DNA from: a virus
Taxonomy: Duplodnaviria > Heunggongvirae > Uroviricota > Caudoviricetes
IMG/VR virus record: IMGVR_UViG_2579779116_000018
Span: 1 to 37,371 of that record
DNA: 37,371 nucleotides
Direction: 5' to 3' (one strand)
Under the pieces are notes generated by a model. The model was not told where the DNA came from, searched no databases, and saw only the letters and a program-made list of their open reading frames with translations. This document shows positions 15,135-30,743 of the stretch, piece by piece (positions within the stretch are counted from its first letter, which is position 1; the number at the start of each line of letters is the position of its first letter). Made by a program: the position numbers and the translations under genes.

Positions 15135-15140
15135 AGAAAA

Positions 15141-15179
15141 GCCCCCATAGTTTTATGATTATTTATCACTATGGGGGGC
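15141..15179 (-). promoter_or_regulatory. intergenic stem-loop sequestering the SD of the downstream minor tail gene
   Basis: GCCCCCCATAG...CTATGGGGGC stem (10 bp, 18 nt loop) between the tape measure stop and ATG 15134; followed by UUUUCU-AUG on the minus strand. Confidence 0.45.
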
Positions 15180-15185
15180 TTTTAA

Positions 15186-17540
15186 TTACATCTTACGACG
15201 CTGTGCGTCTTCTACCGCCTGAGCAACTAACTTAGCGTGACGTTTGATAGCATCCATAACCATCTTGTCTGAGCTATTAACATTGCCGTTAATGTTCAAA
15301 GGTGCGTTAACTTCAATCGGCTGAGAGTTACCACCACCTGATTTTTGAGCAGCAAGGAAGTCTTTCAAATCACCGTTAGTACGCTGATCAACTACTCGTT
15401 CACCCTTATCAAGCAACCATGTACCCTCACGAGGGATGTTATCAATACCATCATGAGCCATACCGCTAACGTTAGTAGACTTGATGTTTGCGATGCTCCC
15501 CATGTTCTGAGAAACAGCCAATGCAGCAGCAGCGATTTTTTGACCTGTGGTTACGTTGGTCGGATCGTTCCATGCTTCGGTAGCAGCCGTCCACATGTTC
15601 ACCGTCGCTTGTCCAATGGAGAATGCCTTATGAGCATTGAAAGCCATCTGCATAGCTTTAGTGTTTTCCTGCCCGAAGAGAGTCATTGCAGCAGCAAAAC
15701 CGCCATACATATCATCGGCTATTGACTGGCGAGCATCAGCATATTTCTTTTCAATTGCAGCCATCCGTTTTTGATGGTTTTCATTGAGTTTTTCTAATGC
15801 AGCCATCCGTTTAGCTGGATCATTAATACCATCAATATTGAGTTTTTCGGTCTTATAATCTTGTTCAGCTTCCGATTTCTCTTGATCGATTGCATTAAAT
15901 TTAGCAAACGGGTTATTTGAATCCTGATAGTCTAAGCTATTAGTCAATTGATTGGTTTTAAAACCATCCATTCCCTGTAACTGACTATCAATCTGAGAAT
16001 AGTTTTGCTCGGTATCATTCACACGACGCATATATTCTTCGTAGGAGATAGCTTTACCATCAAGTAACCGTTTATGGCTTTCTAGCTCGTTGTCCCTGAT
16101 TTGTTGCAAAACTGTTAAGGCATTCAGAGCATCAATCGGATCAGCACCCAACATCATTTTATAGATGTTTTCTGCGTTCTGATCTAACAGTTGCTGACGT
16201 TTAGCGGCTGCGTCTTGCTGAGAGATTAAGCCCATATCTAAAGCAGTGTCTAAATCTTTCAAGCTGGCTTCTAACTGCTTGTTTTGAGAAGCAATAGACG
16301 CGGCTGTCTGTCCTTGCAATTTAACATCAAGAGCATTCAGTCGCTTGATTGCATCCTCGCGTGCTTTCTGTGCTTTTTCTGCGGCTTCCTTAGCCTTTTT
16401 AGCTGCCTCTTCCGCTTTCTTCTTGGCTTCTTCTTGTTCTTTTTTCGATGGTCCGGTGACGCCTCCACCTTGACCCGTTGGGGTAAATCCGGTATCCGAT
16501 TTATTTCCAGTGATAGTAATTACCGGATCACCGTTTTTATCACGGGTAACGCCTTCACTATCCACCCAACGATCAGGATAATTTGGTTTATTGTTGAAGC
16601 TGGCTTGTCCACCCGCTAGACCAGTAGAACTATAACCATGCTTGTTAATAAAACCACCGTTAGCCATAGCCATATTCTGGCGAGCTTTTTCAAACCTTTC
16701 ATTAAAAGTCTTTAATGCGTTGAATAAAGCGGTCTTTTCCCAATCTTTATCAAACCAGTTGTAAAGATTATTCATCCCTTCAACAACTGGATTTAGTGCA
16801 TTTGCAGCCATACCCTTTAAGTTATCGGTAAGGGTATCCATATTTTTAGAGAATTTATTATATTCTTCGGCTGTGTCATTGGTGATTTTAACAGTTTGCT
16901 GATTAATGGCGTTTACAGCTTCCTGATAAGATCCGTATTTCTGCAATTCATCAGCCATATGACTTGAATCACTGGCTAACGATTCCATCATAAACTTAAC
17001 ATCAGCGATAGACGCACCAGCCTTGCGCATATCATAGAAGACCTTGATCGCCGCTTTCATCCCGCCTTGTGGATCGTTCATAAACTCGGCATAATCTTTA
17101 ATCTTCAAACCTACACTTTCTAGGTCGTCTTCAATACCGCCACCGTTACGCCATGCATCAGCCAGCTTATCTAAGGTGTCTTTGTTAATATCACCAAATT
17201 TCTCAACGGTTAAGCCAGTACCGGAGAATTGCTTCTCTAATTTCTGGAGTGTTTCGACGGTTAAACCAGTTGCTTTTGAAACTTCGCTGTATTCCTTTAC
17301 ATAATCACCGATGGCATTTGCAGCAGAAATAGCGCCAGCAGCCAAACCAACAAAACCACCAGCAGCCAAAGCAAGCGATCCACCAGTTCCGCGAAGGGTT
17401 CCACTTAAACTAGATAAACCACCAGACAAATCAAGATTCATTGCCCTTTCTGAAAGGTTATCAAGCATCTCTATCGCCTGATTGGTACTTCTCCTTAGAC
17501 CGTCATTATCTCCTTCTATTGTTACTATATGTCTTGTCAT
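15186..17540 (-). CDS. tail tape measure protein (784 aa)
   Basis: Long alpha-helical protein with Gly/Ala-rich N-terminal region and Lys/Glu/Ala coiled-coil segment, directly downstream of the G/T chaperone pair; RBS GGGGTAATTT. Confidence 0.85.
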   Translation of the reverse strand: MTRHIVTIEGDNDGLRRSTNQAIEMLDNLSERAMNLDLSGGLSSLSGTLRGTGGSLALAAGGFVGLAAGAISAANAIGDYVKEYSEVSKATGLTVETLQKLEKQFSGTGLTVEKFGDINKDTLDKLADAWRNGGGIEDDLESVGLKIKDYAEFMNDPQGGMKAAIKVFYDMRKAGASIADVKFMMESLASDSSHMADELQKYGSYQEAVNAINQQTVKITNDTAEEYNKFSKNMDTLTDNLKGMAANALNPVVEGMNNLYNWFDKDWEKTALFNALKTFNERFEKARQNMAMANGGFINKHGYSSTGLAGGQASFNNKPNYPDRWVDSEGVTRDKNGDPVITITGNKSDTGFTPTGQGGGVTGPSKKEQEEAKKKAEEAAKKAKEAAEKAQKAREDAIKRLNALDVKLQGQTAASIASQNKQLEASLKDLDTALDMGLISQQDAAAKRQQLLDQNAENIYKMMLGADPIDALNALTVLQQIRDNELESHKRLLDGKAISYEEYMRRVNDTEQNYSQIDSQLQGMDGFKTNQLTNSLDYQDSNNPFAKFNAIDQEKSEAEQDYKTEKLNIDGINDPAKRMAALEKLNENHQKRMAAIEKKYADARQSIADDMYGGFAAAMTLFGQENTKAMQMAFNAHKAFSIGQATVNMWTAATEAWNDPTNVTTGQKIAAAALAVSQNMGSIANIKSTNVSGMAHDGIDNIPREGTWLLDKGERVVDQRTNGDLKDFLAAQKSGGGNSQPIEVNAPLNINGNVNSSDKMVMDAIKRHAKLVAQAVEDAQRRKM

Positions 17541-17543
17541 AAA

Positions 17544-17918
17544 TTACCCCAATTGTCCGCTCTTGAGCTTTTGTAATAATGAAGCGTCGAAAAAACTATC
17601 AACCAAAGCAGCGTTACGTTCTTCCTCTTTCTTACGAGCAATTTCTTTTATTTCTTCTTGCGTTTTAAATTGCTTGTCGTCCTTAATCATTCGGAATTGG
17701 TTAACATTGATTTTATTCAACCATTCACGAGTCATGTTAGGAGATGTAACGTGCATGTAATACATCGACTGTGCATGTCGCGCATCTTGAAACAGGGGGC
17801 TTTGTGGTTCAAGATATGTATCGAATATATGCAACGCCCAAAATAGCGTAATTGGCATATTATCCATCTCATCTTTACTCAAGCCCCGACGCATCATTTG
17901 CCGAAAATAAAAATTCAA
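17544..17918 (-). CDS. tail assembly chaperone T-frame ORF (expected C-terminal part of a G-T fusion)
   Basis: ORF lies in the -1 frame relative to the upstream G-like ORF and overlaps its end. The ORF-track start is a TTG, not a credible independent start; the T frame is open from 17942. Confidence 0.5.
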   Translation of the reverse strand: MNFYFRQMMRRGLSKDEMDNMPITLFWALHIFDTYLEPQSPLFQDARHAQSMYYMHVTSPNMTREWLNKINVNQFRMIKDDKQFKTQEEIKEIARKKEEERNAALVDSFFDASLLQKLKSGQLG

Positions 17919-17926
17919 GAGCGGGT

Positions 17927-18235
17927 TTACTTTACCTCGTTTTCAATTACCGCCGCATCTTTCATCAATGATGCTTGAGCAACTAAGCCGATTAATTCGC
18001 TGCGGACGCTAGTATACAATGCCTTAACTTGTTCAATAGATTCAAATACTGGCTTACCGTCTTCATCTTCAATACAACGAAGAATAGAGCGTTCATCACG
18101 GTCTTTTTTATCAGTATTGAAAACATGTTCATTAAATTCTTGTACCGACATAGGGCGAGCATAGAACGTAAATCCTCCGAGGGTTAAAGATTCACGTTTC
18201 GGAGAAAGAGCTTTCAGCATTTCATTCAGATTCAT
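17927..18235 (-). CDS. tail assembly chaperone, gpG-like (102 aa)
   Basis: Small acidic protein immediately upstream of the T-frame ORF and tape measure gene, the conserved G/GT/TMP arrangement. Confidence 0.6.
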   Translation of the reverse strand: MNLNEMLKALSPKRESLTLGGFTFYARPMSVQEFNEHVFNTDKKDRDERSILRCIEDEDGKPVFESIEQVKALYTSVRSELIGLVAQASLMKDAAVIENEVK

Positions 18236-18280
18236 TATTGTTTCCTCATTAATAGTGATTACGCTGTATTTATTTAGAAT

Positions 18281-18787
18281 TTAAGAGATTTTCAAAGTCT
18301 GCTTAGTGCCAGTCTTCTTAATGTTATTGAGGAAAGCAGCCGGAGGATTGCTTAACCAATAGTAATGAAAACCGCTTTGCATACTGTTATAAGGAACAGT
18401 GACAGCAGCACCACCCAAATTAACGGTTATATTCCCCGCTCTACCGTTCTGGAGATATACAGCCATAGTAGGAGTACCGCCATTGAATTGACCAACGATA
18501 ACGCCAACCAGATGGCCTACGCCCACGTTTTCGGGGTTCTCCATAGATCCTTTACCGCGCATGTCAGTTACTGGATAGTTTGAAGCAGTTACACCCCAGT
18601 TATTACCCAATGAAGTAGACCATGCAGCAGTAGCAACAACCGTATCCATACCACGACCAGCCATTGCCGACATATTACGCGGAGCCGGAACTTTTAAAGC
18701 TGTTAATGCTTCTTTCATCCATCGCTTACCCGTCACTGATACAGCCGATGACCCGATCCAGCCGGGAACTTTAACGACATTTGCCAT
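18281..18787 (-). CDS. hypothetical structural protein (168 aa)
   Basis: Gly-rich protein between the tail tube candidate and the chaperones; RBS GGAG; function unknown. Confidence 0.55.
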   Translation of the reverse strand: MANVVKVPGWIGSSAVSVTGKRWMKEALTALKVPAPRNMSAMAGRGMDTVVATAAWSTSLGNNWGVTASNYPVTDMRGKGSMENPENVGVGHLVGVIVGQFNGGTPTMAVYLQNGRAGNITVNLGGAAVTVPYNSMQSGFHYYWLSNPPAAFLNNIKKTGTKQTLKIS

Positions 18788-18802
18788 TTTGATTACTCCA
18801 AT

Positions 18803-18829
18803 AAAAAAGCCCCACCATTAAGGCAGGGC
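18803..18829 (-). terminator. intrinsic terminator (copy 1 of an identical pair)
   Basis: Minus-strand RNA GCCCUGCC-uuaa-GGUGGGGC (two G-U pairs) followed by UUUUUU; the same 27 nt recurs at 24578-24604. Confidence 0.7.
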
Positions 18830-18946
18830 TTATAATTAATCTTTAGCCTTGCGGCTTCGTTTAGCTGTGGCTTTCGCCGTAACAACCTCAATTTCAGGAA
18901 TCACCGTAGGTTCATCTTGAATTGGCTGGGGTTGTTCTTCGAAAGT

Positions 18947-19423
18947 TCAACCACCAGCGGTAAACACTTCCTGTTTGATCGGAGCACCATCAACAGCAAA
19001 GGTATATTCTTTAGTTACGACTTCTTCATCGCCACCCTGCATAGCCGCTTTAGAGATAAAGCCGTTGAAAGCGGTGCGAATACCAGTCTGCTTACCAGCA
19101 TCAACATAATATTCAATCTTAATCTGAATACGCGTGCCATCTTCGGCTGCCTTATCCAGTTTAGCGTGTACCGCATCACCTGGGATGTAGTTAACGGTCA
19201 GAGTCAGATCAGGAACGTTCAGTTTCCCTACCAGTTTACGGTTATACTGAGAAGAGAAGGATTTAACTTCTACAGTACCGCGTTCGATAGCAGTTTCAGG
19301 GAAGCCAGCGCACTCTTTAATTTCTTCGTAACCGGAGTGATCGAGAGTGGTATTAGTGGTATCCGCGTGATAGAACAGACTTACCAGACCACCAGTAAAA
19401 ATATCTTTAAATTGCTGAGACAT
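18947..19423 (-). CDS. putative major tail tube protein (158 aa)
   Basis: Size and position upstream of G/T chaperones; strong RBS AAGGGGTAATT; followed by the same terminator module as the capsid gene, consistent with a highly expressed major structural protein. Family not confirmed. Confidence 0.6.
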   Translation of the reverse strand: MSQQFKDIFTGGLVSLFYHADTTNTTLDHSGYEEIKECAGFPETAIERGTVEVKSFSSQYNRKLVGKLNVPDLTLTVNYIPGDAVHAKLDKAAEDGTRIQIKIEYYVDAGKQTGIRTAFNGFISKAAMQGGDEEVVTKEYTFAVDGAPIKQEVFTAGG

Positions 19424-19452
19424 AGAATTACCCCTTAATTAAATTGTTATTA

Positions 19453-19471
19453 CGGGGGAACTAGTCCCCCG
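19453..19471. other. GC-rich intergenic hairpin CGGGGGA-actag-TCCCCCG
   Basis: Perfect 7 bp stem between the fibre stop and the tail tube start; a similar hairpin occurs at 36743-36761. Confidence 0.4.
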
Positions 19472-19478
19472 ACTTTTA

Positions 19479-22400
19479 TTATTTAGTTGCTTTGAGTTCG
19501 GCTAATTCAGCTTTCGTTTCGGCAAGTTCTTTAGCCATAGCATCAAACTTAGCGCTCATTTCCTGAAACGCCTTAATTAAAAGAGCGTTGACAGCAGAGT
19601 TAGAAATTGTTAAGATCTCTTCTGGCTTATCAGGATCGCCGATCTTAGAAGTTGTTACTGCTTCCGGCAATTCTTTTTCAAGATCCTGAGCAATAATACC
19701 AACTTCATGAGCGATAACAGTGCGGTCCGTCAAAGACTTAACCTTATCGTAGGTGTACACAGTCAAGCGATTAACTTTATCGGTGGCATTCTCCTTATAC
19801 TCTTCCTTGTTGATTTTCAGACGAGCATCAGAACGAATATAAACATCGTTAAAGTTACCATTGCGTCCAGCTTGGAAATCACCGGAGGCGTTAAAGTCAA
19901 AGTTTGTGGTATGGATATGAAGACGTGCCATAGCATTAGTAATAACACCACTAGGAACGTGTACACCCATTGCCGCGATGTGGTCTAAACCCCATTTGGT
20001 CGCTTTCCATACGTTATATGCGGAAGTTTGAGCATTAGGACAATCAACCAATAAGCCAGCAGCGCGAGTTTTCCATTCTGACCATGCACCACCTTGTACT
20101 TCTCCGCGAATCAAACCACGGTCGCTACCGTTTGCATACCCACGTTCTAAGCGAATCATACCAGTCTGGAAAACATGGTCAAATTCTCCGCTGTTATAGT
20201 TTCGAATGCGCATTTGACCTGAGCCATCACCCCAGATAACACCACGGTTAGTACCATTAGCATCCTTAAACCAGAGTTCTTTATTACCATCTCTATACAT
20301 CTGAATTTGGTTATTGGTACGCAAAACATTAGTAACCACCAAATCACCATTTATCCGAGCACGACCACCCGTTTCTAAACTACCAGCAACTCTGAATTGA
20401 ATCGAACCGTTAGAATCACGCTGAGAATATAGATGATAGCTTGTTTCGTCAGCAAGTTCCCACACCTGAGCGCGAGTTTCATTACCCCAAGATTTAACAA
20501 AGAATACAGATTTCGATCCTTCGTCGTTACGTTCCCAATACAGTCTGCTTCCAAGATGTGTGGTTGCGTTCACTTCAACTCGTTTACGTTCGTTGTTGAG
20601 ACGCATTAAATGATTACCAGCATCGCTACCACCTAGTGTAACGTTACCATTGGCTAGGCTATAGATGAACGGCCTAAAGGTATTCCACGGACCCATAGTG
20701 TCGCCTGATTTTGTGCTCATCAGATAAACGTTACTACCGTCATTTCGCCACCATGAACCATAGTTACCATATACAGTACGGAAGCCATCAGCATATAAAG
20801 AAATGAATTGACCGTTAGTATAAACTCGCTTCATATTGCCAGTTTGAAGTTCTATCTGGCCGTCAATATGTTGACGAATAGAACTACCGCCTACATCACT
20901 ATACCATTCAAAAACGTTAGTATCAGCATTGGCATAACCGATCCATCCTTGACGAGTAATATCTCCAGTACGATTATCTTGAAACGCAATATGGTTGGAT
21001 TGACCAGCAGGTCGGCGTAGTGTAATGGCATTAGATCCGCCATTTAACAGCATACGACCAGAAATAATATTACCTTTATGAGTCCCAGCAATAGAGCTAC
21101 TAGATTCAACGGTTAGAATATCCTGAGCATCAGTGGCACCAGTAGCCAGACGATAGCTGGCACCTTGAACAGTCTCATGCCAGATCATTTCATTATAGTT
21201 ACTACGGAATTTACGAATATATTTCCGTCCAGTACCTCTATCATTGCTTAGATGAACAATGTCATAGCTGTTTTGTGTATTGTCGTCAAAACTCAACACA
21301 CCACGTTTATTTTCGGTGTTGAAAAGAGTTACGTTGCGACCACCGATAACACCAACGGAAGGTTTAATTAACGTGGCTTCCGGCGTATCATAAACCGTCA
21401 AACTTACATAAACAGATTTCCCATATTCGACAATAACGTTATCGGTATAACGCTGATATTTCACGTAGATATCATAGTTATCACCGGAAGTATTGACAGC
21501 AAATACCTCAAAATCTTTGTTTGTATTTCTACGGTATGCAATTACGTTAAGACCTTTAGGTCTATCGTTACCACTACGCAGAAGAATTTCTACTACGTCA
21601 ACCTGATCATATGCCGTAACGCTGTAACCATTACCACCATGAATACGGAAAAACACACTACGCCCGTTTTGTGGAATTGTTGCGGTTGCCAATTTGAAAT
21701 ATGCAGATACGTTTTCGCTAGAATTAGGAACAGACATAACGACGTTTTTAACAAACATCTTATCAACTTCTGCTTTAGTGTATGCACCAATCTCGCCAGG
21801 AGTCGGCTTATCACCTTCGTGATACATCTTATAGCTAAAGTTCTTCTGTCCTTCTCTATCAAAACCATAGGTTTCAACACGAGATCCACCAGACGCATAA
21901 CGGAAAGTAAATCCGCGACCGTGCGCTTTACCGGCAGAATGAGGAACGTTAAGGGTCAGATCCATGAGTCCATCTTGTCCATTGGTACGGAAAGCACCAA
22001 AGTAGTTAAGATCTCGCGCTGTCTGATCTTCCAGATAGTTAGCTGTCTTGCTTAACAAATACCCGCCATGCTTAGTATTGGTATTCTTCTTGATGTAAGC
22101 AGCATCGGCACTACCTTCAATAGAATCAATTCGCTGGTTAGCTGCGGCAATTGCGGCATCAGTAGAAGATTTATTCTGGTCTACCTTGTTGTTAATAGCG
22201 GTATGGTTGCTGTTAACAGTGCCAGTAAGGTTACTGATTTTAGTATCAGCATCTTTCTTGTTGTCGGAAACGACCTTTTCAATCGCTGTTTTGTTAGCTG
22301 CAACCGTGCTAGTTAAGCTAGAAATTTTGTTATCTGCATCGGTTTTATTTGCAGTAACAGTTTTAGTTAAGTTGCTAACGTTGGTGTTAGTGGTATTAAC

Positions 22401-22928
22401 TTTGTTGTTAATCGCGGTGTTATTGTCATTAACCGTCGTGGTTAAAGCTGCGATTTTATTGTCCGCATCTCGTTTATTATTTGCTACAGTAGTTTCTATA
22501 GCTGATTTGTTAGATGCAACTGTCCCTGTAAGGTTATTGATCTTAGTATCAGCATCGGTTTTATTTGCCGTGACTGTCTGGGTTAAGTTACTAACCGTGG
22601 TGTTAGTAGCATCAATGCGCTTATTGGTCGCTGTATCTTTCGTGGTAATAGTCTGATTCAGTTCAGCTTTAGCACTAGCCAGATTATTAGCGGCTTCTTG
22701 TTTGTTGGAAGCAATAACACGGTCAGTGCTAGTTTTGTTATTGTCTACTTTCGTATTCAGTTCAGCGTGTTTTTCTGGAGAAACACTAATTTGGACTACG
22801 TTATTATTTTTGTCTTTGGTGTAAATCACATGATCCGCCAACTGTAAGGCGATTTCACCCTGTGATAATTGTTCCGGCGTTGGTTTTTTACCAGCCGTTT
22901 GTGTGCGTTTAAATTGGATTGATTGCAT
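19479..22928 (-). CDS. fibre protein with C-terminal intramolecular chaperone (peptidase S74) domain (1149 aa)
   Basis: C-terminus SDARLKINKEEY...VIAHEVGIIAQDLEKELPEAV...LLIKAFQEM matches the auto-cleaving chaperone domain of T5 L-shaped fibre / endosialidase type; N-terminal third is Thr/Asn-rich tandem repeats; KPTPGEIGAYTKAEVD motif. Confidence 0.85.
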   Translation of the reverse strand: MQSIQFKRTQTAGKKPTPEQLSQGEIALQLADHVIYTKDKNNNVVQISVSPEKHAELNTKVDNNKTSTDRVIASNKQEAANNLASAKAELNQTITTKDTATNKRIDATNTTVSNLTQTVTANKTDADTKINNLTGTVASNKSAIETTVANNKRDADNKIAALTTTVNDNNTAINNKVNTTNTNVSNLTKTVTANKTDADNKISSLTSTVAANKTAIEKVVSDNKKDADTKISNLTGTVNSNHTAINNKVDQNKSSTDAAIAAANQRIDSIEGSADAAYIKKNTNTKHGGYLLSKTANYLEDQTARDLNYFGAFRTNGQDGLMDLTLNVPHSAGKAHGRGFTFRYASGGSRVETYGFDREGQKNFSYKMYHEGDKPTPGEIGAYTKAEVDKMFVKNVVMSVPNSSENVSAYFKLATATIPQNGRSVFFRIHGGNGYSVTAYDQVDVVEILLRSGNDRPKGLNVIAYRRNTNKDFEVFAVNTSGDNYDIYVKYQRYTDNVIVEYGKSVYVSLTVYDTPEATLIKPSVGVIGGRNVTLFNTENKRGVLSFDDNTQNSYDIVHLSNDRGTGRKYIRKFRSNYNEMIWHETVQGASYRLATGATDAQDILTVESSSSIAGTHKGNIISGRMLLNGGSNAITLRRPAGQSNHIAFQDNRTGDITRQGWIGYANADTNVFEWYSDVGGSSIRQHIDGQIELQTGNMKRVYTNGQFISLYADGFRTVYGNYGSWWRNDGSNVYLMSTKSGDTMGPWNTFRPFIYSLANGNVTLGGSDAGNHLMRLNNERKRVEVNATTHLGSRLYWERNDEGSKSVFFVKSWGNETRAQVWELADETSYHLYSQRDSNGSIQFRVAGSLETGGRARINGDLVVTNVLRTNNQIQMYRDGNKELWFKDANGTNRGVIWGDGSGQMRIRNYNSGEFDHVFQTGMIRLERGYANGSDRGLIRGEVQGGAWSEWKTRAAGLLVDCPNAQTSAYNVWKATKWGLDHIAAMGVHVPSGVITNAMARLHIHTTNFDFNASGDFQAGRNGNFNDVYIRSDARLKINKEEYKENATDKVNRLTVYTYDKVKSLTDRTVIAHEVGIIAQDLEKELPEAVTTSKIGDPDKPEEILTISNSAVNALLIKAFQEMSAKFDAMAKELAETKAELAELKATK
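22070..22720 (-). repeat. in-frame tandem coding repeats within the fibre gene
   Basis: Protein-level repeats of the type TVTANKTDADTKI(N/S)NLTGTV..N.TAIN(N)KV recur several times; nucleotide repeats visible. Approximate bounds. Confidence 0.6.
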
Positions 22929-22944
22929 CTAGAATCACCTCACT

Positions 22945-22977
22945 ATAAAACAGGAATAAGGGAGGCGTTAACCTCCC
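22945..22977 (-). terminator. terminator-like hairpin upstream of the fibre gene
   Basis: Minus-strand GGGAGG-uuaacg-CCUCCC followed by UUAUUCCUGUUUUAU. Confidence 0.45.
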
Positions 22978-23007
22978 AACGTTCATGTTTTATTTAGGTA
23001 AGCAATC

Positions 23008-23841
23008 TTAATACTCACCGAAATCGATCCGGTCAGTCTTAGCCACTGCGCCAATTTCGCTAGGTGTCGGTTTCTCATTGGTGGAATATACCTTGATCCA
23101 TTCAGAACGACCGTTTTCCTGAATATTTCGGACACGTAAACGCGGTGCGCCAGAAGTATTACAGGTTAATTGCCATGCGCCATGCTCATTAGCTTGAAGG
23201 TGAATTAATGCTGTGTCGGTTGAATATGGATTACCGCTAGCAGTTCCCTTGTAAGTTACGAAACGGTTTCCGGCTAATGCCTCGCTATCAATCGGACCCG
23301 TGAAAGGATTTACACCAGCACCGATACCAAAATCACCCTGACGTAAGATACGGCCTTCGGTCGCTATACCCCTTGCTAGAATCCCGCCATCTGGTTCAAG
23401 TTTAAATTCCAGTGTTACAGCTTTGTTATCACTACCACGGGTTTTATGTGATGTGACGTAAGCATCATAGATGACATAGTAACCAGTGTTAGCAGCACTA
23501 TAGCCAGAGTTCACAACATAGAACATACGGAAGCGTAAAGGTGTTTTATCCTCTACCGCTTTCATCAACATTGCTTGATGTTCATCGTCAAGAACACGGT
23601 TTAACGTGAGTGTCGTCGGTTCCAGTCTACGATAACCAGCAAGTTTCCCCGTAGCGTCCTGATCGTACTCTTCCAGAGTTTCTATCTCTGTGGATTCGGT
23701 TAGCGTAGGGAATGCTGCGACGTTCTCAATAGAACTAAAACTAGGATCGAAAAAGTCGACCTGATTGTCTATCTGGTTAGAGATCGACACTTCAACATGT
23801 GATCCAGTGAAAATATCTAAGTTATCTTGTGTAATATTCAT
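23008..23841 (-). CDS. structural protein (277 aa), possibly neck/collar or fibre-associated
   Basis: RBS AAGGGGTAATA; C-terminal EKPTPSEIGA motif shared with the downstream fibre; role not determined. Confidence 0.6.
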   Translation of the reverse strand: MNITQDNLDIFTGSHVEVSISNQIDNQVDFFDPSFSSIENVAAFPTLTESTEIETLEEYDQDATGKLAGYRRLEPTTLTLNRVLDDEHQAMLMKAVEDKTPLRFRMFYVVNSGYSAANTGYYVIYDAYVTSHKTRGSDNKAVTLEFKLEPDGGILARGIATEGRILRQGDFGIGAGVNPFTGPIDSEALAGNRFVTYKGTASGNPYSTDTALIHLQANEHGAWQLTCNTSGAPRLRVRNIQENGRSEWIKVYSTNEKPTPSEIGAVAKTDRIDFGEY

Positions 23842-23850
23842 TATTACCCC

Positions 23851-24273
23851 TTAAAAACGCGCTAGATAAGAAAATTTAAGGCTAAGTGTCCCAACGATAC
23901 CACCATCACTAGAATCATCGTCATAATCGGTATTAGAGGCTACTGGAGTGATATCTGAAATTGAGAAGCCCAAATCTTTAAAACGTGGGTTATCCGGCTG
24001 AATCTGGATTATCTGGCAAATACCCTCATGAATTTTGGTTTCATGAATCTGAGAATATAATTGCATTTCGATAACGCATTCAGCTTGCATTGCATTACCA
24101 CCACGAACACGCGTATAAGTTTCATTCATGCCAGTGATCCAACAAACCACGTCATCACTAAAGCCTTGCTGAGTTTGTTCTACGTTTAAAGCCAGACCTA
24201 AATCTTGTTCGATAATATCTTGCAAGGCGCGTTTGATTTTCAGTCTAGGCATATTATTAACGGTAGCGAGCAT
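23851..24273 (-). CDS. head-tail connector protein candidate (about 140 aa)
   Basis: Start placed at internal ATG 24271-24273 with RBS AGGGGGT; small protein directly after the capsid gene region, typical position of head completion proteins. Confidence 0.5.
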   Translation of the reverse strand: MLATVNNMPRLKIKRALQDIIEQDLGLALNVEQTQQGFSDDVVCWITGMNETYTRVRGGNAMQAECVIEMQLYSQIHETKIHEGICQIIQIQPDNPRFKDLGFSISDITPVASNTDYDDDSSDGGIVGTLSLKFSYLARF

Positions 24274-24547
24274 GTGTACCCCCTGCCAGAGTGATAAAGC
24301 AATCAGAAGTATTATCACCATTGCGCTTAACGTATTGAACTTTGAAACGCTGATTTTCTACAATGACAATATCACCCTGCTTTAAGTCTCCCTCACGACA
24401 AAATAGAAATTCTGTCTCTGTCATTACCCCTTGTTCGTCGGTAGTAGTAATTTCATGATAAGCACGAATTGATTTACCACCTTCCACCGAAAATACAGGA
24501 GCACTCTTAAACATTCTTGATAATTGTGATTCTGATAATTTGAACAT
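24257..24547 (-). CDS. head-tail connector protein candidate (96 aa)
   Basis: RBS AAGGGGGTAACT; first gene after the capsid terminator; typical position of a head-tail adaptor. Confidence 0.5.
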   Translation of the reverse strand: MFKLSESQLSRMFKSAPVFSVEGGKSIRAYHEITTTDEQGVMTETEFLFCREGDLKQGDIVIVENQRFKVQYVKRNGDNTSDCFITLAGGTHARYR

Positions 24548-24577
24548 AGTTACCCCCTTTATGGAGTATTTACATAC

Positions 24578-24604
24578 AAAAAAGCCCCACCATTAAGGCA
24601 GGGC
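24578..24604 (-). terminator. intrinsic terminator (copy 2 of an identical pair)
   Basis: Identical 27 nt to 18803-18829: GCCCUGCC-uuaa-GGUGGGGC then UUUUUU, immediately downstream of the capsid gene. Confidence 0.7.
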
Positions 24605-24697
24605 TAATTATTATTTTGCTTTCGGTGGACGTCCCACCTTTTTAGCTGTGGCTTTCGCCGTAACTACCGGAATTTCTTCCGGCAATTCTTCGTTATT

Positions 24698-26704
24698 TCA
24701 CTCTTCGCCCATTTTCAGAACTTTCAGAGCTTCCGGCTGAACTACGGTGAAGTCCAGGTCTACCCAGATACGCGGAACGATAGCAGACTGTGCGCGGTAA
24801 GTGGTGTCATCCATATCCAGTTCCAGACCACCCCATTCACCGATCATGATACCGGAGAAGTCACCCAGAACGATGTGGTCTGCCGGAATAACGCCAGAAG
24901 TAACTACATCGTAACCAGCCAGTTTGCCGTTTTCGATGATATAACCGGAAACGCCGTTATCTTTCAGGGTAGATTCCAGTTCAGCAGCAGTTGCACCGCT
25001 CATTGCAAACTTGATGGACTGTGCCGGAACGCCAGCGTCGGTCAGTGCTGCAATTTCTTTCAGGAAGTCTTTGTAAGAGAAGGCAGTTTTCTTAGTAACG
25101 CGACCACCGTCTACCAGTTGCTTAACCAGACCAGCCGGACCACGAGTATTATCTTTGTCAGACAGAATCAGTTGTTCCAGTTTGATCCGAACAGCTTTGT
25201 TAATGTGATCAGTGATCAGGGTAGCGATGCCGGGAACTTGCTTGATGCTCGCTCTGCTAATCGGGTTGCCTCCAGCAAACGTCTTAGGAGACATTTTCAC
25301 GTTCGAAAAGGTAGCCTTCGACTCGGGGGCACTTCCATTTTCATCAACAAAACCAAAGGCTTCGACGCTGGAAGCAGTCATTTTTGGTACTGCAATCGGG
25401 CTATTCAGACCAGACAGAACAGTCACACCCAGACGACCCAGACACGAAGCAGGAAGCAGCATTTCGATGTAGGATTCAGTCAGCAGTTTTTCATCGGTGA
25501 TAGCAGTCAGGTCAGCTTTGGTGTTGCCAGCAGCAGCAGCACGCATAGCAGCAGCCGGAACGAATACAGAGCCACCACGAGCAGCACGACCACGCTGCAT
25601 TGCAGCACCAGCAGCCATAGCGGAATATTCAGCTTCGTTAGCACCCAGAGCAGCACCATCTACCAGAGAGCGAATTACGTTGTTCAGGTCAAAAGTTTTT
25701 TCCATGTTTTTTTCCTTATTAATTTGTTCGTTATTACGTTGAGCATTGGTAATGTTATTTAGTGCCTTAGTGCGGAATGCTTCCGGCGTCATGTCTTTAA
25801 TTGCCAATGCGCGTTTCAATTCTTCGTCGTCAATATTTAGTTCGCGTGCAATTTCGCGAATTTCTAATTCGTCTTCTTCGGAACGTTCAGCCACTTCTTC
25901 GATTTTTTCTTCTTCAATCGGAGCGGCTTCACGTTCTTCTTTTACTTCTTCTTCTTCCCGAACAGTTGAACTATCATCATCAACACTTTCAGGATGTTCA
26001 GCGTCTTTTCCGTCTTCGAGATTTTCATCTTCTTTATTCTCTTCAACTTGGCGCTCTTGAGTTTCTTCAACTTCCGATTCTTTATTTTCTTCTACCGGAG
26101 TTTCTTCAACCTGAGCGGATTCTTGTTCTTCTTTGATTTCTTCGATTTGTTCTTTAGTCATATCGCGTTTAGCCCCCAAATTAACTGTGATAGTATTTAG
26201 AGAGCGATTTAAACCGACCGAATCATCGGCAGGGACCGTCACAAATGAAATTTCAAAAGGCGCCCACTTAGTAACAATCAATTGCCCTTTGGTGTAGTCG
26301 ATGTGATATTCTTTAATGTCATAACCGACAGAAATTTTTTCCATCGTACCTTCAATGACTTTATTGCGAATATCATTAGCCAAAGTGCCATGCTTAGAGA
26401 ATTTAACCAGAGCACGACCTACGTTATCCGTATCGATTCGAGCGTCGCAGACTACACCAATGTGATTATCGAAATTATGATTGAACAGCAACGGAGCGTT
26501 ATTATTCAGACGAGACAGATCAACCGCTTCCGGTGTATGTACCAGAATTTCATCTAATACCACCATTTCTTGATTTTGCTCATCCCAGAATTGGCGCTGG
26601 TAAGGCTGGGTACTGGAGAAAGCAATTTCAAATTCGTATTGATCGTTATGCCCTTCATTAATAACTCCACCGTAACCGTTAAGATCGCGGCGAAATTTAA
26701 GCAT
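24698..26704 (-). CDS. prohead protease (S78-like) - scaffold-like linker - HK97-fold major capsid protein fusion (668 aa)
   Basis: N-terminal domain with PLLFNHNFDNHIGVV, KISVGYDIKEYHID and FEISFVTVPADD (caudoviral prohead protease signature); Glu-rich about 120 aa linker; C-terminal about 350 aa typical of HK97-type capsid proteins; single uninterrupted ORF. Confidence 0.85.
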   Translation of the reverse strand: MLKFRRDLNGYGGVINEGHNDQYEFEIAFSSTQPYQRQFWDEQNQEMVVLDEILVHTPEAVDLSRLNNNAPLLFNHNFDNHIGVVCDARIDTDNVGRALVKFSKHGTLANDIRNKVIEGTMEKISVGYDIKEYHIDYTKGQLIVTKWAPFEISFVTVPADDSVGLNRSLNTITVNLGAKRDMTKEQIEEIKEEQESAQVEETPVEENKESEVEETQERQVEENKEDENLEDGKDAEHPESVDDDSSTVREEEEVKEEREAAPIEEEKIEEVAERSEEDELEIREIARELNIDDEELKRALAIKDMTPEAFRTKALNNITNAQRNNEQINKEKNMEKTFDLNNVIRSLVDGAALGANEAEYSAMAAGAAMQRGRAARGGSVFVPAAAMRAAAAGNTKADLTAITDEKLLTESYIEMLLPASCLGRLGVTVLSGLNSPIAVPKMTASSVEAFGFVDENGSAPESKATFSNVKMSPKTFAGGNPISRASIKQVPGIATLITDHINKAVRIKLEQLILSDKDNTRGPAGLVKQLVDGGRVTKKTAFSYKDFLKEIAALTDAGVPAQSIKFAMSGATAAELESTLKDNGVSGYIIENGKLAGYDVVTSGVIPADHIVLGDFSGIMIGEWGGLELDMDDTTYRAQSAIVPRIWVDLDFTVVQPEALKVLKMGEE

Positions 26705-26723
26705 TTAATCACCTTTAATTAAT

Positions 26724-26740
26724 TGGGGGCATTGCGCCCC
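26724..26740 (-). other. GC hairpin GGGGGC-attgc-GCCCCC between portal and capsid genes
   Basis: Perfect 6 bp G/C stem in the 45 nt intergenic spacer; no clear U-tract. Confidence 0.35.
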
Positions 26741-26749
26741 CGTTGGTTA

Positions 26750-28261
26750 TTAGGGATCGGCTGGGGAATTTTTTTCTTCACCCTCGCCATTAACGATAAT
26801 ATTTAGTGCGCTCTTTTCGGCTTGAATCTCTGAGAATACTTTTTCAGGATCATCACCACGTTCAAGAATAACGGCAGTACGTGATTTAAGTCCGTTATCA
26901 ATTAAAGCAATCTCGGCGCTTACGTCTTTAAATGGATCGACGGATTCAAAACGCGGACGGATAATAGTTGTATTATCGATAATATGCGGAATTGCAGTAA
27001 TACGAATCGGAACAATACCACGCGCGGAATAATGTCGAAGATAACTTTCGAAAATAGGCAATACAACCGTCTCAATTAATTTGTTTTGCAGTGCTTTAAC
27101 TCGTGTGCGCTGGGTTAGTTCCCCAAAACGCGCGGCTGAGTAGTTGATCTGTGAACAATCTCCTGTTAAGCCCTGTTTGAACACGCCTAAGCCCATTGAT
27201 ACGCTAGTAAACATCGCATCATTGAAGCTGTTAAAGTCATCACCGCTTTGCGTCGCCTGGATGCTCTTGATCGTTGCCCCTTCCGGTAATTCCTGAATAG
27301 TACCCGGTGCAAAATCCTGTACTACTTCCGGCGCTTGATATTGTTCATCATCTTCACCAGTATCAAAATCGTCACCAGAATCTTTCGGACGTTCGATAAA
27401 GCCCATAGAGCTAGCTGCAATACGTTTCTGGATGATCGCGGTTTCGCGGAATGCGTCTTGATGTGCGATATCCTTGATCACTGGCAGGAAGTCAGTCACA
27501 CCACGCAGGGATTCGGCTGTAAGTGGTTGATAATAATGGCATACTTGCGATGCATCTACGCGATAGTTATCACCTGTGTAAGTCTGAGTCAGTAGGTTGA
27601 TTTTACGAAACCAGTATGCAACAGGGCGCATTGTTTCTACGTCATACTCGATCCCCTGAAATATCGCACGGTCTTTGCTTACTTCACGATTGAGCGACCA
27701 GTCGCACTTATCAGCAGACAGGATAGAAACATTTAACTCATTGTTTTCTTTGGTTAAAACGATGAAGCACTCACCACCCATAACGCGCTCACGTTCAGCC
27801 ATTACCAGCAGTTCACGGAAGTTAAAGCGACCGTTACGAGAGAAGCGTTTAGCGTTCTGCGCCCACTTCCAGAAAGCATTCTCGATCTGCTTATTCAGTG
27901 CGCTATCAAGTTTGCCATTTGATTTAACGATTGACGGCTTAGGATCTAGGCCAGTAGCAACCACCATATCGGTGATGTATTGCGTGTAGCGACTGCCAAC
28001 GGAAGTGTTTAAGGCCAGAGTACGACCCTGATCATAAAGGCGCTTACCGTTCGATTTGAGAGCCTTATTGAAGGTTCCTGTAATGGTGTCTTGTTGAAGC
28101 TGCCCATCAATGCGATCACCGACTAAGCCCAAAGAACGCTTAGACAAATCTTTCTGGAATTTTTCTACTTGTTTGTCGATAAAGATTTTTTGTTGTTGCT
28201 GGCGGTGATTAGTTTTAACTGGAGTTTCTACCGCCTTTTTGCGTCGAAAAAGATTAAACAT
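26750..28261 (-). CDS. portal protein (503 aa)
   Basis: Size and position between large terminase and capsid genes; RBS AAGGGGTAAATC; acidic C-terminal tail. Confidence 0.85.
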   Translation of the reverse strand: MFNLFRRKKAVETPVKTNHRQQQQKIFIDKQVEKFQKDLSKRSLGLVGDRIDGQLQQDTITGTFNKALKSNGKRLYDQGRTLALNTSVGSRYTQYITDMVVATGLDPKPSIVKSNGKLDSALNKQIENAFWKWAQNAKRFSRNGRFNFRELLVMAERERVMGGECFIVLTKENNELNVSILSADKCDWSLNREVSKDRAIFQGIEYDVETMRPVAYWFRKINLLTQTYTGDNYRVDASQVCHYYQPLTAESLRGVTDFLPVIKDIAHQDAFRETAIIQKRIAASSMGFIERPKDSGDDFDTGEDDEQYQAPEVVQDFAPGTIQELPEGATIKSIQATQSGDDFNSFNDAMFTSVSMGLGVFKQGLTGDCSQINYSAARFGELTQRTRVKALQNKLIETVVLPIFESYLRHYSARGIVPIRITAIPHIIDNTTIIRPRFESVDPFKDVSAEIALIDNGLKSRTAVILERGDDPEKVFSEIQAEKSALNIIVNGEGEEKNSPADP

Positions 28262-28271
28262 GATTTACCCC

Positions 28272-28766
28272 TTATCGCGTAAGACGTAATTTGATATTTT
28301 TAATCGGGCTAATTCCCTGTTTACGTCGTTCGGCTTGAATTAATTTAGATAACTGACGTTCATAATCAGTCTTCAATTGCTGGAGAACACCCAATGACTC
28401 ATAGGCGAAAGTATTCCCTTTCACTGTCATTTGAGATAATGCGGCTTCGTCCCCAGATAAACGGGCGAAAATAACTTGCTCGATTAAGGCGATAGTTTCC
28501 CGCAGATAGTCTTTCTTGGTCTGTTTCTGGAATACTGGCAATACAGTTAATTCCTGCATAGAGATTAATTCATCGTCACGAGTAATAACGATGGTCATTT
28601 TTCCTTCTGGGAAGTCTAATGTTTTAATCTCGTGATTTTCCGGTGCATCATCGACTTGATAAACGATAGCTTTACTATTTCCGACCTGAATGGTTACACC
28701 CTCTTCATTCGCCAGCGTTATTTTTTCGCCTTTACGAATTACTAAGGGAATTAGTTCTAAACTCAT
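28272..28766 (-). CDS. hypothetical head morphogenesis protein (164 aa)
   Basis: Located between large terminase and portal genes (position of lambda W-type genes); RBS AAGGGGTAATT; no motif recognised. Confidence 0.55.
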   Translation of the reverse strand: MSLELIPLVIRKGEKITLANEEGVTIQVGNSKAIVYQVDDAPENHEIKTLDFPEGKMTIVITRDDELISMQELTVLPVFQKQTKKDYLRETIALIEQVIFARLSGDEAALSQMTVKGNTFAYESLGVLQQLKTDYERQLSKLIQAERRKQGISPIKNIKLRLTR

Positions 28767-28814
28767 AATTACCCCTTATTTAATTGTTATTGGATTAACA
28801 ATATTTAGGAGTAA

Positions 28815-28832
28815 GCCGCCCCGAAGGACGGC
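28815..28832 (-). other. UUCG-tetraloop hairpin downstream of the terminase gene
   Basis: Minus-strand RNA GCCGUCC-UUCG-GGGCGGC (one G-U), then a moderately U-rich segment. Confidence 0.4.
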
Positions 28833-28838: not shown

Positions 28839-30743
28839 TTAGAACGATGTTACCCAGCTACGGCCTCTATTTGGGCGTCTGGCGATGTTTTGACGTTGTG
28901 GTCGTGTGATTGGCTTAGTTTCTTCGATTTGCTCGTCAGATTGCGATTTAGGAGCTTCTACAGGTTCTTCTGGTTCACGGTTCAAACTATCTTTGATGGC
29001 TTCGAGTTTTTCCCATGACATTTTATTGAGTACATGACGAGAAGCAGCATAGGAATAAGCCAGGCAGTCGAGAGCCTCGTTTCGTTGCTGACCAACTTTT
29101 ACCCAACGTGTGGTATTACCCTGCCGTTTCAACTGTTCAGATAACAATTGCTCGCAATAGTCATCAGGAACGTCACCAATCTGGAAGACCGTATGAGGAT
29201 CGCTGTCTCTCAAGTTCCGGTTAATCATTTCACGGATCATCGTCTTAAGGTTGTTTACGCCCAGAATTTTGAGAGTAAAACCGCCCGTTCTTGTGTCCTT
29301 AGCCGGAAGGATTGGAGCATCAGCATTACTTGCGCCTTTAATGGCGCATAGGTTTTGCCACCTAGTGCAAAAACGGTAGATCACGTTTGTAGCTCGTCCG
29401 TTCGATGAGTCCACGAAAGCAGATAACATCGGGATTCGTTCACCGGATCGGGTATAGAATTTCGCTTTCAGGAAGTTATAAAGCTGGTCATATGCTGGCG
29501 ATTCGTGGCGTTCGCAGTTCACATCATAGAATGATCGGTGATCAACTACGCATATCCCCTTACGAGAGATACCCAGCAAGGTAGATTCCAGACGGTCTTT
29601 TTGCTGGTCAACTCCACCTACCAGAGCCAGTACATCATCAGGAATATTGTCTAGGCTAATATCAGTTTTCAGCGTTTCCAGTTCGTCGGCTGTGCGGTCT
29701 TCGTTAAGATCATCGAAGGTTTCGCCTAAGACAGTGTTATAGAACGTTGCCAGGGACATATTCGCGTAGCTATCAGCAAAGTCCACCACACACGCACGGA
29801 TAGAACTAAACGGAGACATAAGGCGGTTAGCATGAAAACCGATTACTTCCGCATTTGGTTCGGTGGCGACCCATTCTCCCTGAGCAACAGCACGGAGGCG
29901 ATCCCCTTCGGTCCAATCGGTTTCACATTCAGGGCAACGGTAAACGGCTGTATCTGGGTTGGGTAATGATTTACCGTTAATCGTATGCCAATCGAAATGT
30001 ACGTTACTCCATTCCATTACGTGCTTGTGTCCGCAATGCTGGCAAACGACATGATATTTTCTCTTATCCGAGAGTTCCCATTGTTGGTTAATCGCCCCAT
30101 CACGAGCGGTTGGAGTGGAAGCAATTACGATCCTTGCATCTTCCCCGAAAGTGGTTGCGCGTTGTTCCGCTAGCTGGATCGGGTTCCCTTCGTCTGACTC
30201 ATCAGCCGCATCAACTTCATCAAGAATAATCAAAGGGAGTGTTTTACCGCGAAGATGTGACGGACTATTCAACGACATGAAATACATAAACGATCCGTTA
30301 CGAAGCTGAATAATCGATGAGTTGTTAACGGCATTGCGATCTGATTTGTCGGTGATCATCGCTTTTAATTCTGGCGTTGCCTCTAATACTGGCTTCACCT
30401 TACCAGCGATCCAAGAATTTAGTTCCCTAACGTTACTTTGCAAGACCCCAATATTAGTAGGGTTACTCGCGATCCGATGGAAGATAATTCCGTTAAGAAT
30501 CATGGTCTTACCCAACTGCGCCGAACATTTAAACACAATTTTTCTACGGTCTTCGGTGATCGCGTCCATCATTCCACGTTGGAAGGGATGCAATTTAATT
30601 AGCGATCCGGCTTTAACACCATCGGTTGCAACTACATTAGCCTCTACCCATTCGCTAGGTTTCATGGCTTTAGGTGGGCGAATTGCAGCAGAGATATTTC
30701 TGAGAATCTTTTTTAATTTTGCCTTATTAGAAATCAGTTTCAT
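28839..30743 (-). CDS. terminase large subunit, lambda gpA-like (634 aa)
   Basis: HPFQRGMMDAI, Walker A-like KCSAQLGKTM, Asp-rich LIILDEVDAADE, Cys cluster CQHCGH...CPEC; first gene of the minus-strand late operon. Confidence 0.9.
   Translation of the reverse strand: MKLISNKAKLKKILRNISAAIRPPKAMKPSEWVEANVVATDGVKAGSLIKLHPFQRGMMDAITEDRRKIVFKCSAQLGKTMILNGIIFHRIASNPTNIGVLQSNVRELNSWIAGKVKPVLEATPELKAMITDKSDRNAVNNSSIIQLRNGSFMYFMSLNSPSHLRGKTLPLIILDEVDAADESDEGNPIQLAEQRATTFGEDARIVIASTPTARDGAINQQWELSDKRKYHVVCQHCGHKHVMEWSNVHFDWHTINGKSLPNPDTAVYRCPECETDWTEGDRLRAVAQGEWVATEPNAEVIGFHANRLMSPFSSIRACVVDFADSYANMSLATFYNTVLGETFDDLNEDRTADELETLKTDISLDNIPDDVLALVGGVDQQKDRLESTLLGISRKGICVVDHRSFYDVNCERHESPAYDQLYNFLKAKFYTRSGERIPMLSAFVDSSNGRATNVIYRFCTRWQNLCAIKGASNADAPILPAKDTRTGGFTLKILGVNNLKTMIREMINRNLRDSDPHTVFQIGDVPDDYCEQLLSEQLKRQGNTTRWVKVGQQRNEALDCLAYSYAASRHVLNKMSWEKLEAIKDSLNREPEEPVEAPKSQSDEQIEETKPITRPQRQNIARRPNRGRSWVTSF

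Follow-up and report, generated by a model that had tools for sequence, protein, structure and literature searches.

Conserved Hairpins, a Repeated Ribosome-Binding Leader and Candidate UGA Read-Through Extensions in the Late Operon of an Escherichia coli Prophage

The stretch of DNA analyzed here, positions 1 to 37,371 of the IMG/VR virus record IMGVR_UViG_2579779116_000018 (all 37,371 nucleotides are hereafter called the window), is an Escherichia coli siphovirus prophage of ~35 kb. The late genes are encoded on the minus strand and run from TerL, the large terminase gene (30743..28839), to a lysis cassette near 6826; this late operon of ~24 kb would form a single long transcription unit. 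We suggest, with a probability of roughly 0.6, that the hairpins and a short repeated leader at its gene junctions are RNA punctuation of the operon: terminators, stabilizers or boundaries, hairpins that mask a Shine-Dalgarno (SD) sequence, and a strong ribosome-binding leader. Taken singly, these are ordinary and well-known kinds of phage mRNA punctuation. The less ordinary part, as the sequence suggests, is that the capsid and tail-tube genes both end in a probably leaky TGA, beyond which an in-frame extension is closed by one of two near-identical terminators.

A preliminary description of positions 15141-28832 had listed five GC-rich hairpins and twin terminators. All were found on the coding strand, and the positions given for the hairpins were right except for that of the portal hairpin, which had been placed at 26724-26740 and is shifted by 1 nt (26725-26741). 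They are as follows, with coordinates in the direction of transcription.

28832..28815, minus strand: hairpin after TerL, GCCGUCC-UUCG-GGGCGGC, with a C(UUCG)G tetraloop, -14.1 kcal/mol, 6 nt past TAATAA.
26741..26725, minus strand: hairpin after the portal gene, GGGGGC-GCAAU-GCCCCC, 8 nt past TAATAA, without a U-tract and followed by the AU-rich leader of the protease-capsid gene.
24605..24583, minus strand: twin terminator 1, after the capsid extension, AGCCCUGCC-UUAAU-GGUGGGGCU plus U6, a canonical intrinsic terminator.
22977..22960, minus strand: hairpin between the 277-amino-acid (aa) tube-like gene and the tail-fiber gene, GGGAGGU-UAAC-GCCUCCC, with the U-rich tail UUAUUCCUGUUUUAU.
19471..19453, minus strand: hairpin after the fiber gene, CGGGGGA-CUAGU-UCCCCCG, 7 nt past TAATAA, without a U-tract and directly before the leader of the tube gene.
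18831..18807, minus strand: twin terminator 2, after the tube extension, AAGCCCUGCC-UUAAU-GGUGGGGCUU plus U6.
15179..15141, extended 15183..15137, minus strand: long hairpin between the tape-measure and 186 aa genes, with an 11-15 bp stem, a 16-nt loop and the tail UUUUCU.

All seven fold on the minus strand at -13 to -21 kcal/mol. The stem starts 2-8 nt past the stop codon at the TerL, portal, fiber and tape-measure junctions and about 30 nt past that of the 277 aa gene. The twin terminators are 94% identical to each other over 36 nt; the remaining stem sequences are unrelated. At the TerL-164 aa junction the hairpin tail UUACUCCU is able to pair with the SD of the next gene, and the hairpin at 22960..22977 is the core of a bigger fold in which CUUACC is paired with the fiber SD.

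These structures lie in gaps more often than chance predicts. Hairpins had been said to occur at nearly every late junction, which is true of the junctions that have room for one: among 22 late junctions, 12 have a gap of >30 nt and 10 of those 12 hold a stable stem-loop, the two without being gp38-102 aa and 256 aa-144 aa. It is not true of the operon as a whole, where about half of the 22 junctions are gapless, with genes overlapping or coupled. When the coding strand was scanned in 40-nt windows, 51 clusters reached -12 kcal/mol or lower, 11 of them in 963 nt of non-coding and 40 in 22,955 nt of coding sequence, a 6.6-fold higher density of stable folds in the former. Perfect GC stems numbered three in intergenic and one in coding sequence (binomial p = 2.5e-4). 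Compared with dinucleotide shuffles, whole gaps gave z = -5.2, -5.1 and -5.1 at the TerL, 277 aa and tape-measure junctions, respectively, -3.7 in the TerL leader (30746..30788) and -4.3 at 13856..13898.

Selection on the gaps was gauged with 15 annotated relatives (L001-L015) and 32 from IMG/VR (L016-L047), giving alignments of 22-48 sequences per junction, the window included. Only 38 of 302 columns (13%) vary in hairpin-bearing gaps, versus 268 of 500 (54%) at flanking third codon positions (Fisher p = 1.6e-33) and 212 of 1000 at codon positions 1 and 2 (p = 8e-4). Nucleotide diversity is 0.001-0.064 in these gaps versus 0.06-0.33 at the flanking third positions, and within the hairpins themselves 12 of 111 columns vary. 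The gp38-102 aa gap, the only hairpin-less one open to comparison, serves as an internal control: 21 of its 45 columns (47%) are variable, significantly more than in hairpin-bearing gaps (p = 4e-7), and therefore intergenic location alone does not bring conservation. The TerL-164 aa hairpin has no variable column among 18 (48 aligned sequences, the window plus 47 relatives), the portal hairpin none among 17 (46 sequences; it is identical even in L015, the most divergent family member), and the hairpin between the 277 aa and fiber genes one among 18 (42 sequences). By this measure the hairpin-bearing gaps are under strong purifying selection.

The four short GC stems hardly vary within the family, and most of the few compensatory changes are found elsewhere. 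In the tape-measure hairpin of relatives, one C-G pair has become U-A by a double change, wobble variants with G.U occur and the loop is variable. At the fiber-tube junction, class B tube alleles carry CGGGGAU/AUCCCCG, with two double changes, and class C alleles a small covarying hairpin. Watson-Crick and wobble swaps occur in the TerL leader stem, and a pair of Atlantibacter prophages also shows compensatory or wobble changes.

This pair belongs to a set of four distant relatives (L048-L051, from Atlantibacter, Leclercia and Mangrovibacter), with 31-51% protein identity, that came from a search of genome contigs with a 5-sequence alignment; a 12-sequence alignment was too diverse as a query, and the capsid alone matched nothing among the genome contigs. 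In all four there is a hairpin of unrelated sequence before the tube gene, and both of the distant relatives that reach the tape-measure junction have a hairpin after that gene. The Atlantibacter prophages have terminators after capsid and tube and also a hairpin at the junction of 277 aa/fiber type. At the tape-measure junction, Leclercia has a terminator with a separate, adjoining SD-masking hairpin and Mangrovibacter has one hairpin. Since one hairpin does both jobs in the window and two do so in Leclercia, the comparison suggests that terminator and SD-masking functions are both selected there. Judged by position, some junction hairpins are old and functional and others are specific to the E. 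coli family. Given these data, it is hardly credible that the hairpins are functionless, a chance or compositional product of short AT-rich gaps with runs of G and C. Two of the gaps do fold no better than dinucleotide shuffles and 40 similarly stable local folds lie in coding sequence, but the non-coding enrichment, a diversity far below that of third codon positions and of the hairpin-less gap, and the compensatory changes together with positional conservation are all at odds with that idea.

Conservation of this kind could also mean that the junctions are mainly recombination linkers at module boundaries, comparable to the PeSLs of T4-type phages, with the hairpins incidental or secondary. 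Several observations invite this explanation. Identical junctions join divergent alleles (the TerL 3' ends of L005 and L015, 277 aa 3' ends, fiber 5' variants, and portal/capsid of L015), divergent capsid-extension alleles are joined to one terminator, and the fiber cassette between two hairpins has been swapped among family members. Leader and terminator modules are duplicated inside the genome, loops are conserved along with stems, and RB49/phi1, in which PeSLs were described (PMC2839356), are of the phage group with which this prophage has its fiber gene in common. However, the hairpin sequences all differ, which makes mutual recombination impossible, and no sigma-70-type promoter adjoins the stems. 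In 19 collinear relatives the ends of identity tracts are dispersed, with a modest peak only upstream of the portal-capsid hairpin, and the left boundary of the swapped fiber cassette is inside a gene and not at a hairpin. The distant relatives, moreover, keep the junction position with unrelated sequence, which points to structure rather than identity as the conserved property. We therefore regard linkers as an unlikely primary function, and the RNA punctuation reading as the better account of the same junctions.

The near-identical leader reported before the 164 aa and tube genes is real, and a third, split copy before TerL can be added.

28767..28791, minus strand: leader copy 1, before the 164 aa gene, AATAACAATTAAATAAGGGGTAATT, an AU-rich tract plus the SD UAAGGGGU, ending at the ATG.
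19426..19451, minus strand: leader copy 2, before the tail-tube gene, AATAACAATTTAATTAAGGGGTAATT, predicted to be unstructured.
30746..30788, minus strand: leader copy 3, before TerL, split by an SD-masking hairpin and outside the 15141-28832 range.

The pattern AACAATT(N0-2)AAT...GGGTAATT has three matches, at 28788..28767, at 19448..19426 and, split, at 30788..30746, versus none in 100 shuffles. Each copy is 22-27 nt of AU-rich tract and the 7-nt SD UAAGGGGU, which lies 4-6 nt from the ATG; all three are on the coding strand, with 0-2 nt between their end and the ATG. Only class A tube alleles have the tube copy, classes B and C having different AU-rich leaders, and the genes behind the leader (TerL, 164 aa and tube) form no common abundance class. 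From its composition and position, the leader looks like a duplicated strong ribosome-binding region and not like an operator or other dedicated regulator site.

Action at the DNA level would require the GC palindromes to be sites for a dimeric late regulator or internal late promoters, with the leader as a promoter element. There are indeed inverted repeats upstream of gene starts, a leader copy stands before TerL, which as the first late gene must have a promoter, loop bases are conserved, and many prophage genes have no assigned function. Against this, the palindromes have no common half-site, their distance to the ATG varies from 26 to 57 nt, and several stems hold G.U pairs, which are mismatches in DNA. 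The leader ends in an SD, leaving no space for a 5' untranslated region if it were a -10 element, and no promoter-like site adjoins on the minus strand except low-scoring overlaps. We consider a DNA-level role improbable. Because of the G.U pairs, which would not pair in DNA or on the opposite strand, the C(UUCG)G tetraloop and the unrelated stem sequences, the action appears instead to be on the late transcript, as RNA punctuation predicts. A separate candidate, the motif RTAAATACYYYC before three genes, was considered as a T4-late-like promoter and rejected; in SD-masking stems it is better explained as the complement of SD plus spacer, and an ordinary ribosome-binding site at 35194, read in reverse, fits the motif too.

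Three kinds of RNA device can be proposed. The first is the terminator. A U-run lies directly 3' of the stem at 24583-24605 and 18807-18831 (U6 in both) and at 15141-15179 (UUUUCU), with a loose one at 22960-22977. Canonical terminators with a U-tract stand behind the tail-tip gene and behind each of the two extensions, capsid and tube; weaker, terminator-like hairpins follow the tape-measure, 277 aa and 235 aa genes. All terminators within the operon must be leaky or overridden, since essential genes lie downstream. The capsid and tube genes are each bracketed by a hairpin upstream and a terminator downstream, and the mRNA of these segments would, owing to the terminators, be protected at its 3' end, more abundant and more stable than that of the genes that follow. 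From the arrangement alone, the bracketing fits raised or more stable mRNA for capsid and tube, the two most abundant virion proteins.

Not all of the hairpins are terminator-like. Those at 28815-28832, 26725-26741 and 19453-19471 have no U-run and for that reason are not classed as terminators. These GC clamps, the second device, stand 6-8 nt past the TAATAA of TerL, portal and fiber, with AU-rich leaders next. They would most likely block 3'-5' exonucleases after an endonucleolytic cut in the following AU-rich leader, and could thereby set mRNA segments of differing stability and shield the next ribosome-binding site from upstream structure. These same hairpins might alternatively terminate antisense (plus strand) transcription, guarding the late genes from convergent read-in. 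On the plus strand there are T-rich tails, ACTTTTATTA after 19453-19471 and TTGGTTATTA after 26724-26742, and both sites came up in a terminator scan. However, the tails are merely the complement of the TAATAA stops, G.U pairs make the UUCG hairpin and both twin terminators weaker on the opposite strand, no plus strand gene or promoter reads into these sites, and relatives have hairpins at the same junctions without such tails. An antisense role thus seems very improbable, and a stabilizer or boundary function within the late mRNA is preferred for the clamps.

The third device is SD masking. The SD of the 186 aa gene had been placed in the 3' arm of the 15141-15179 hairpin, and occlusion is borne out by prediction, with a probability of being unpaired of 0.00 (3' arm GGGGGC). 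The same holds for TerL (0.01), for the 256 aa gene (0.02) and for the 115 aa gene; in all four the SD forms the 3' arm of a hairpin and its predicted probability of being unpaired is at most 0.02. Such hairpins would damp translation or couple it to upstream events. Three of these four hairpins, and one further canonical terminator, lie outside the 15141-28832 range.

30773..30747, minus strand: SD-masking hairpin splitting the TerL leader.
13898..13856, minus strand: terminator-like hairpin before the 256 aa gene, its 3' arm carrying the 256 aa SD.
8815..8780, minus strand: canonical 16-bp terminator after the 1258 aa tail-tip gene.
7567..7540, minus strand: hairpin masking the SD of the 115 aa gene in the lysis cassette.

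The hairpins before the 115 aa gene (7540-7571) and in the TerL leader are 74% identical over 31 nt, with the SD fully buried in both. The broader proposal that these features set late gene stoichiometry after transcription agrees with their RNA-level character, with the selection on them and with the terminators behind capsid and tube; the set of genes behind the leader does not track abundance, and that part of the proposal is not supported.

The preliminary description overlooked that the twin terminators belong to in-frame extensions beyond TGA stop codons.

24614..24697, minus strand: capsid extension, in frame and stop-free for 28 codons, encoding NNEELPEEIPVVTAKATAKKVGRPPKAK and ending in TAATAA (24613..24608).
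18839..18946, minus strand: tube extension, in frame and stop-free for 36 codons, encoding TFEEQPQPIQDEPTVIPEIEVVTAKATAKRSRKAKD and ending in TAA (18838..18836).

The capsid and tube genes have the only TGA stops among the late genes, each followed by A (24700..24698 and 18949..18947). The other 21 end in TAA, among them four TAATAA and one triple TAA. All 48 capsid loci have TGA-A and an extension that stays open in frame 0 up to a double stop, in 23 peptide alleles of 28-45 codons. The 24 class A tube loci without exception show the same, their 13 alleles having 36, 39 or 41 codons, and at both sets of loci lengths differ only by multiples of three. Where a tube allele ends in TAA, the extension is missing and a terminator comes next. 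Both extensions share a VVTAKATAK motif and a basic tail and are closed by a twin terminator.

The twin terminators may thus be the ends of two copies of a 3' module consisting of an acidic/proline linker, TAKATAK, a basic tail, TAA and the terminator. Since no other late gene of the operon ends in TGA and the module follows both of these stops in frame, UGA read-through probably extends some of the capsid and tube subunits. In E. coli, Trp-tRNA competes with release factor 2 for UGA and decodes it at low frequency, so that an extended protein results (PMC10570021); tryptophan at this codon would give ...MGEE-W-NNEELPEEIPVV... in the capsid and ...TAGG-W-TFEEQPQP... in the tube protein. In the reading that we favor, with some reserve, the 3' module would be mobile and ribosomes would enter it only through programmed read-through of UGA; head and tail would then both display the same flexible linker and basic tail (...TAKATAK-K/R-rich), carried by a minority of their capsid and tube subunits. 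As part of the same reading, and with like caution, tight stops (TAATAA plus a GC clamp) and leaky ones (TGA-A) would make up one coherent system that sets both mRNA ratios and protein-isoform ratios.

Read-through is weakened by the codon-position bias in the extensions, which is weak (14/24/25 in the capsid and 9/7/16 in the tube extension) and marks the peptide as loosely constrained. The case for translation therefore rests on frame, openness and stop-codon choice. ARAGORN found no suppressor tRNA. Its sole call, a 91-nt tRNA-Gln at 23996-24086 on the plus strand, is antisense in the 140 aa gene, has no Rfam support and is probably false; the segment is invariant in relatives because the 140 aa protein is highly conserved. 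A tblastn search with the tube extension gave no match in the phage collection, and a limited literature search found no report of read-through in a tailed double-stranded DNA phage. One protein, P0271, appeared to be a natural fusion of tube and extension through TGG (Trp), but the contig DNA reads TGA and we rejected it as a gene-calling artifact. Stable local hairpins are present at 24662-24687 (minus strand; 11 bp, 10 nt past the capsid TGA) and at 18925-18958 (minus strand; spanning the tube TGA), and in the long allele of the capsid extension another hairpin lies about 24 nt past the stop.

A number of points weigh against the RNA punctuation reading. The hairpins are almost invariant in the E. 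coli family, so that covariation amounts to a handful of events, and loop conservation equals stem conservation, for which structure alone does not account. Zero-diversity 40-nt windows are also seen in coding sequence (four of seven in one 6 kb alignment). Two gaps fold weakly relative to dinucleotide shuffles (z = -2.0 for portal-capsid and -1.0 for fiber-tube), a result of the G5 and C5 runs surviving the shuffling. In the distant relatives, TerL, the 164 aa homologue, portal and capsid abut and the hairpins after TerL and portal are absent; these two are therefore not essential to the gene order. With Pfam and PHROGs, run on a subset of open reading frames, no antiterminator or late activator was recognized, which leaves the passage of RNA polymerase through two strong terminators unexplained. 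A ribosome at the tape-measure stop reaches only the A-U base of the 15141-15179 stem, so coupling by unwinding fits only partly. The effects on termination, processing, stability and occlusion are all ones that we infer from the sequence.

The remainder of the prophage provides some context. By Pfam and PHROGs, the late genes begin with a gpA-type terminase, a 164 aa head-tail joining-like protein (a weak PHROG match) and a lambda-family portal, continue with a 668 aa protease-major capsid fusion, two small connector-like genes and the 277 aa protein with a tube-like N-terminal domain, and proceed to a 1149 aa tail fiber (distal part T4 gp37-like), the 158 aa tail tube protein and a gp38-type adhesin. 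Downstream of the adhesin there are probably two chaperone-like genes, the 784 aa tape-measure protein and tip genes, judging from size, order and the annotation of relatives. On a subset of open reading frames, Pfam recognized no repressor, replication gene, small terminase or antiterminator. Of 5,426 complete E. coli genomes, 58 carry the element at a DNA identity of about 84-94% (55 with a shorter query), and in one of them a close relative is located in ycdX with a serine recombinase adjacent.

The tube gene stands between the T4 gp37-like fiber gene and the gp38-type adhesin gene (18281-22928, minus strand), two genes that are normally adjacent. The distal 2.5 kb of the fiber gene is 80-92% identical to RB49-like phages, and this T4-like segment, common to that group, is the only DNA-level relationship found in the phage collection. 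Three family members (L008, L009 and L013) have other fiber cassettes, of pyocin-knob or head-spike types, or the adhesin upstream of the tube gene. The N-terminal domain of the 277 aa protein (23008-23841, minus strand) falls in the same PHROG as the tail tube protein (18947-19423), and in the Leclercia and Mangrovibacter relatives (L049 and L051) a domain of this type is fused to a fiber-like protein of 1007-1434 aa. These observations suggest that the 277 aa protein is a tube-like ring anchoring the fiber. The left arm (578-6794, both strands) encodes three CapR-domain proteins, a T5orf172/MUG113-domain protein and a UvsW-like helicase and adjoins a serine recombinase; its genes may be defense or accessory cargo. 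Insertion sequences (IS2, IS1, IS5/ISKpn26 and IS903B) interrupt capsid, fiber or connector genes in L004, L007, L010, L011 and L012, and since they inactivate several members, many family copies are decaying prophages.

The hairpins and leader of this family illustrate a way to divide a long late operon into parts with no recourse to internal promoters, and the conserved hairpin gaps, set against a freely drifting hairpin-less gap, are good test cases for segmental mRNA stability and SD masking. If the extensions are translated, minor isoforms of capsid and tail proteins can arise in tailed phages by stop-codon read-through as well as by the routes already known, two major structural proteins of the family are cut short by standard annotation, and head and tail would share a surface-exposed tail, a read-through counterpart of the frameshift extensions of Listeria phages.

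Each of these devices has a known parallel. In the Pseudomonas phage LUZ7, studied by ONT-cappable-seq, sequential read-through of weak terminators was reported to balance expression (bioRxiv 10.1101/2022.03.18.484859). As with the leaky terminators of T7 and LUZ7, the prophage has a GC stem and U-tract behind highly expressed structural genes with essential genes downstream; unlike them, two of its terminators are near-identical and lie behind putatively recoded gene ends, three of its hairpins lack a U-tract, and all are known from sequence alone. Intercistronic stabilizer hairpins include the malE-malF REP element, those of the Rhodobacter puf operon and the RNase III sites of T7. The resemblance is of a stem-loop just past a stop codon in a polycistronic mRNA, followed by an AU-rich single-stranded target of RNase E type, from which segmental stability would be expected; the stems here, at 6-7 bp, are too short for RNase III. 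They are not REP or BIME elements either, the stems being unrelated, with no Rfam match and no repeat family besides the twin terminators; at E <= 1, Rfam gave only two sub-threshold matches, neither at a hairpin.

The PeSLs of the T4-type phages RB49 and phi1 exist in many near-identical copies, each with a strong sigma-70 promoter, in early hyperplastic regions (PMC2839356, PMC4122927). Like them, the junctions described here are conserved intergenic stem-loop cassettes, perhaps at the edges of exchangeable genes, in a prophage whose fiber gene is common to that phage group. Unlike them, these junctions have stems that differ from one another, carry no promoter and belong to late structural genes: the minus strand has no high-scoring promoter next to a stem (two overlapping matches have the minimum score, 9/12), and only the twin terminators and the three leaders are repeated. 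The leader in turn resembles, in form only, the start-associated sequence (SAS; there is also an extended SAS) of Cluster K mycobacteriophages, a conserved, asymmetric 13-bp motif (GGGATAGGAGCCC) that includes the SD, lies directly upstream of several starts, with sites numbered to at least #19 in one genome, and is preceded in about half of cases by an inverted repeat; its function is unknown (PMC3203893). Both contain an SD, in one orientation, directly upstream of multiple starts, whereas the leader has three copies, is 22-27 nt long and AU-rich, and has no sequence relation to GGGATAGGAGCCC, and the inverted repeats near it are not a common motif.

For the extensions, the closest parallels are the frameshift-made C-terminal extensions of capsid and tail proteins in the Listeria phages PSA, A118 and A500 and the 10A/10B proteins of T3/T7 (PMC5009743). 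As in the Listeria phages, capsid and major tail genes both have a candidate longer product that would arise from a recoding signal at the 3' end. Unlike PSA, A118 and T7, the extension here is in frame 0 behind TGA-A, and so would be made by read-through and not by a frameshift; it has 28-45 residues of acidic/proline and basic composition rather than an Ig-like domain, and, as far as the sequence tells, the same tail and terminator are common to both genes. The extended coat protein of Q-beta, A1, is a minor component of the virion. As with A1 and with UGA read-through in E. coli, the product proposed here would be an extended protein past UGA, in this case in a tailed phage family, unlike Q-beta, which is a single-stranded RNA phage.

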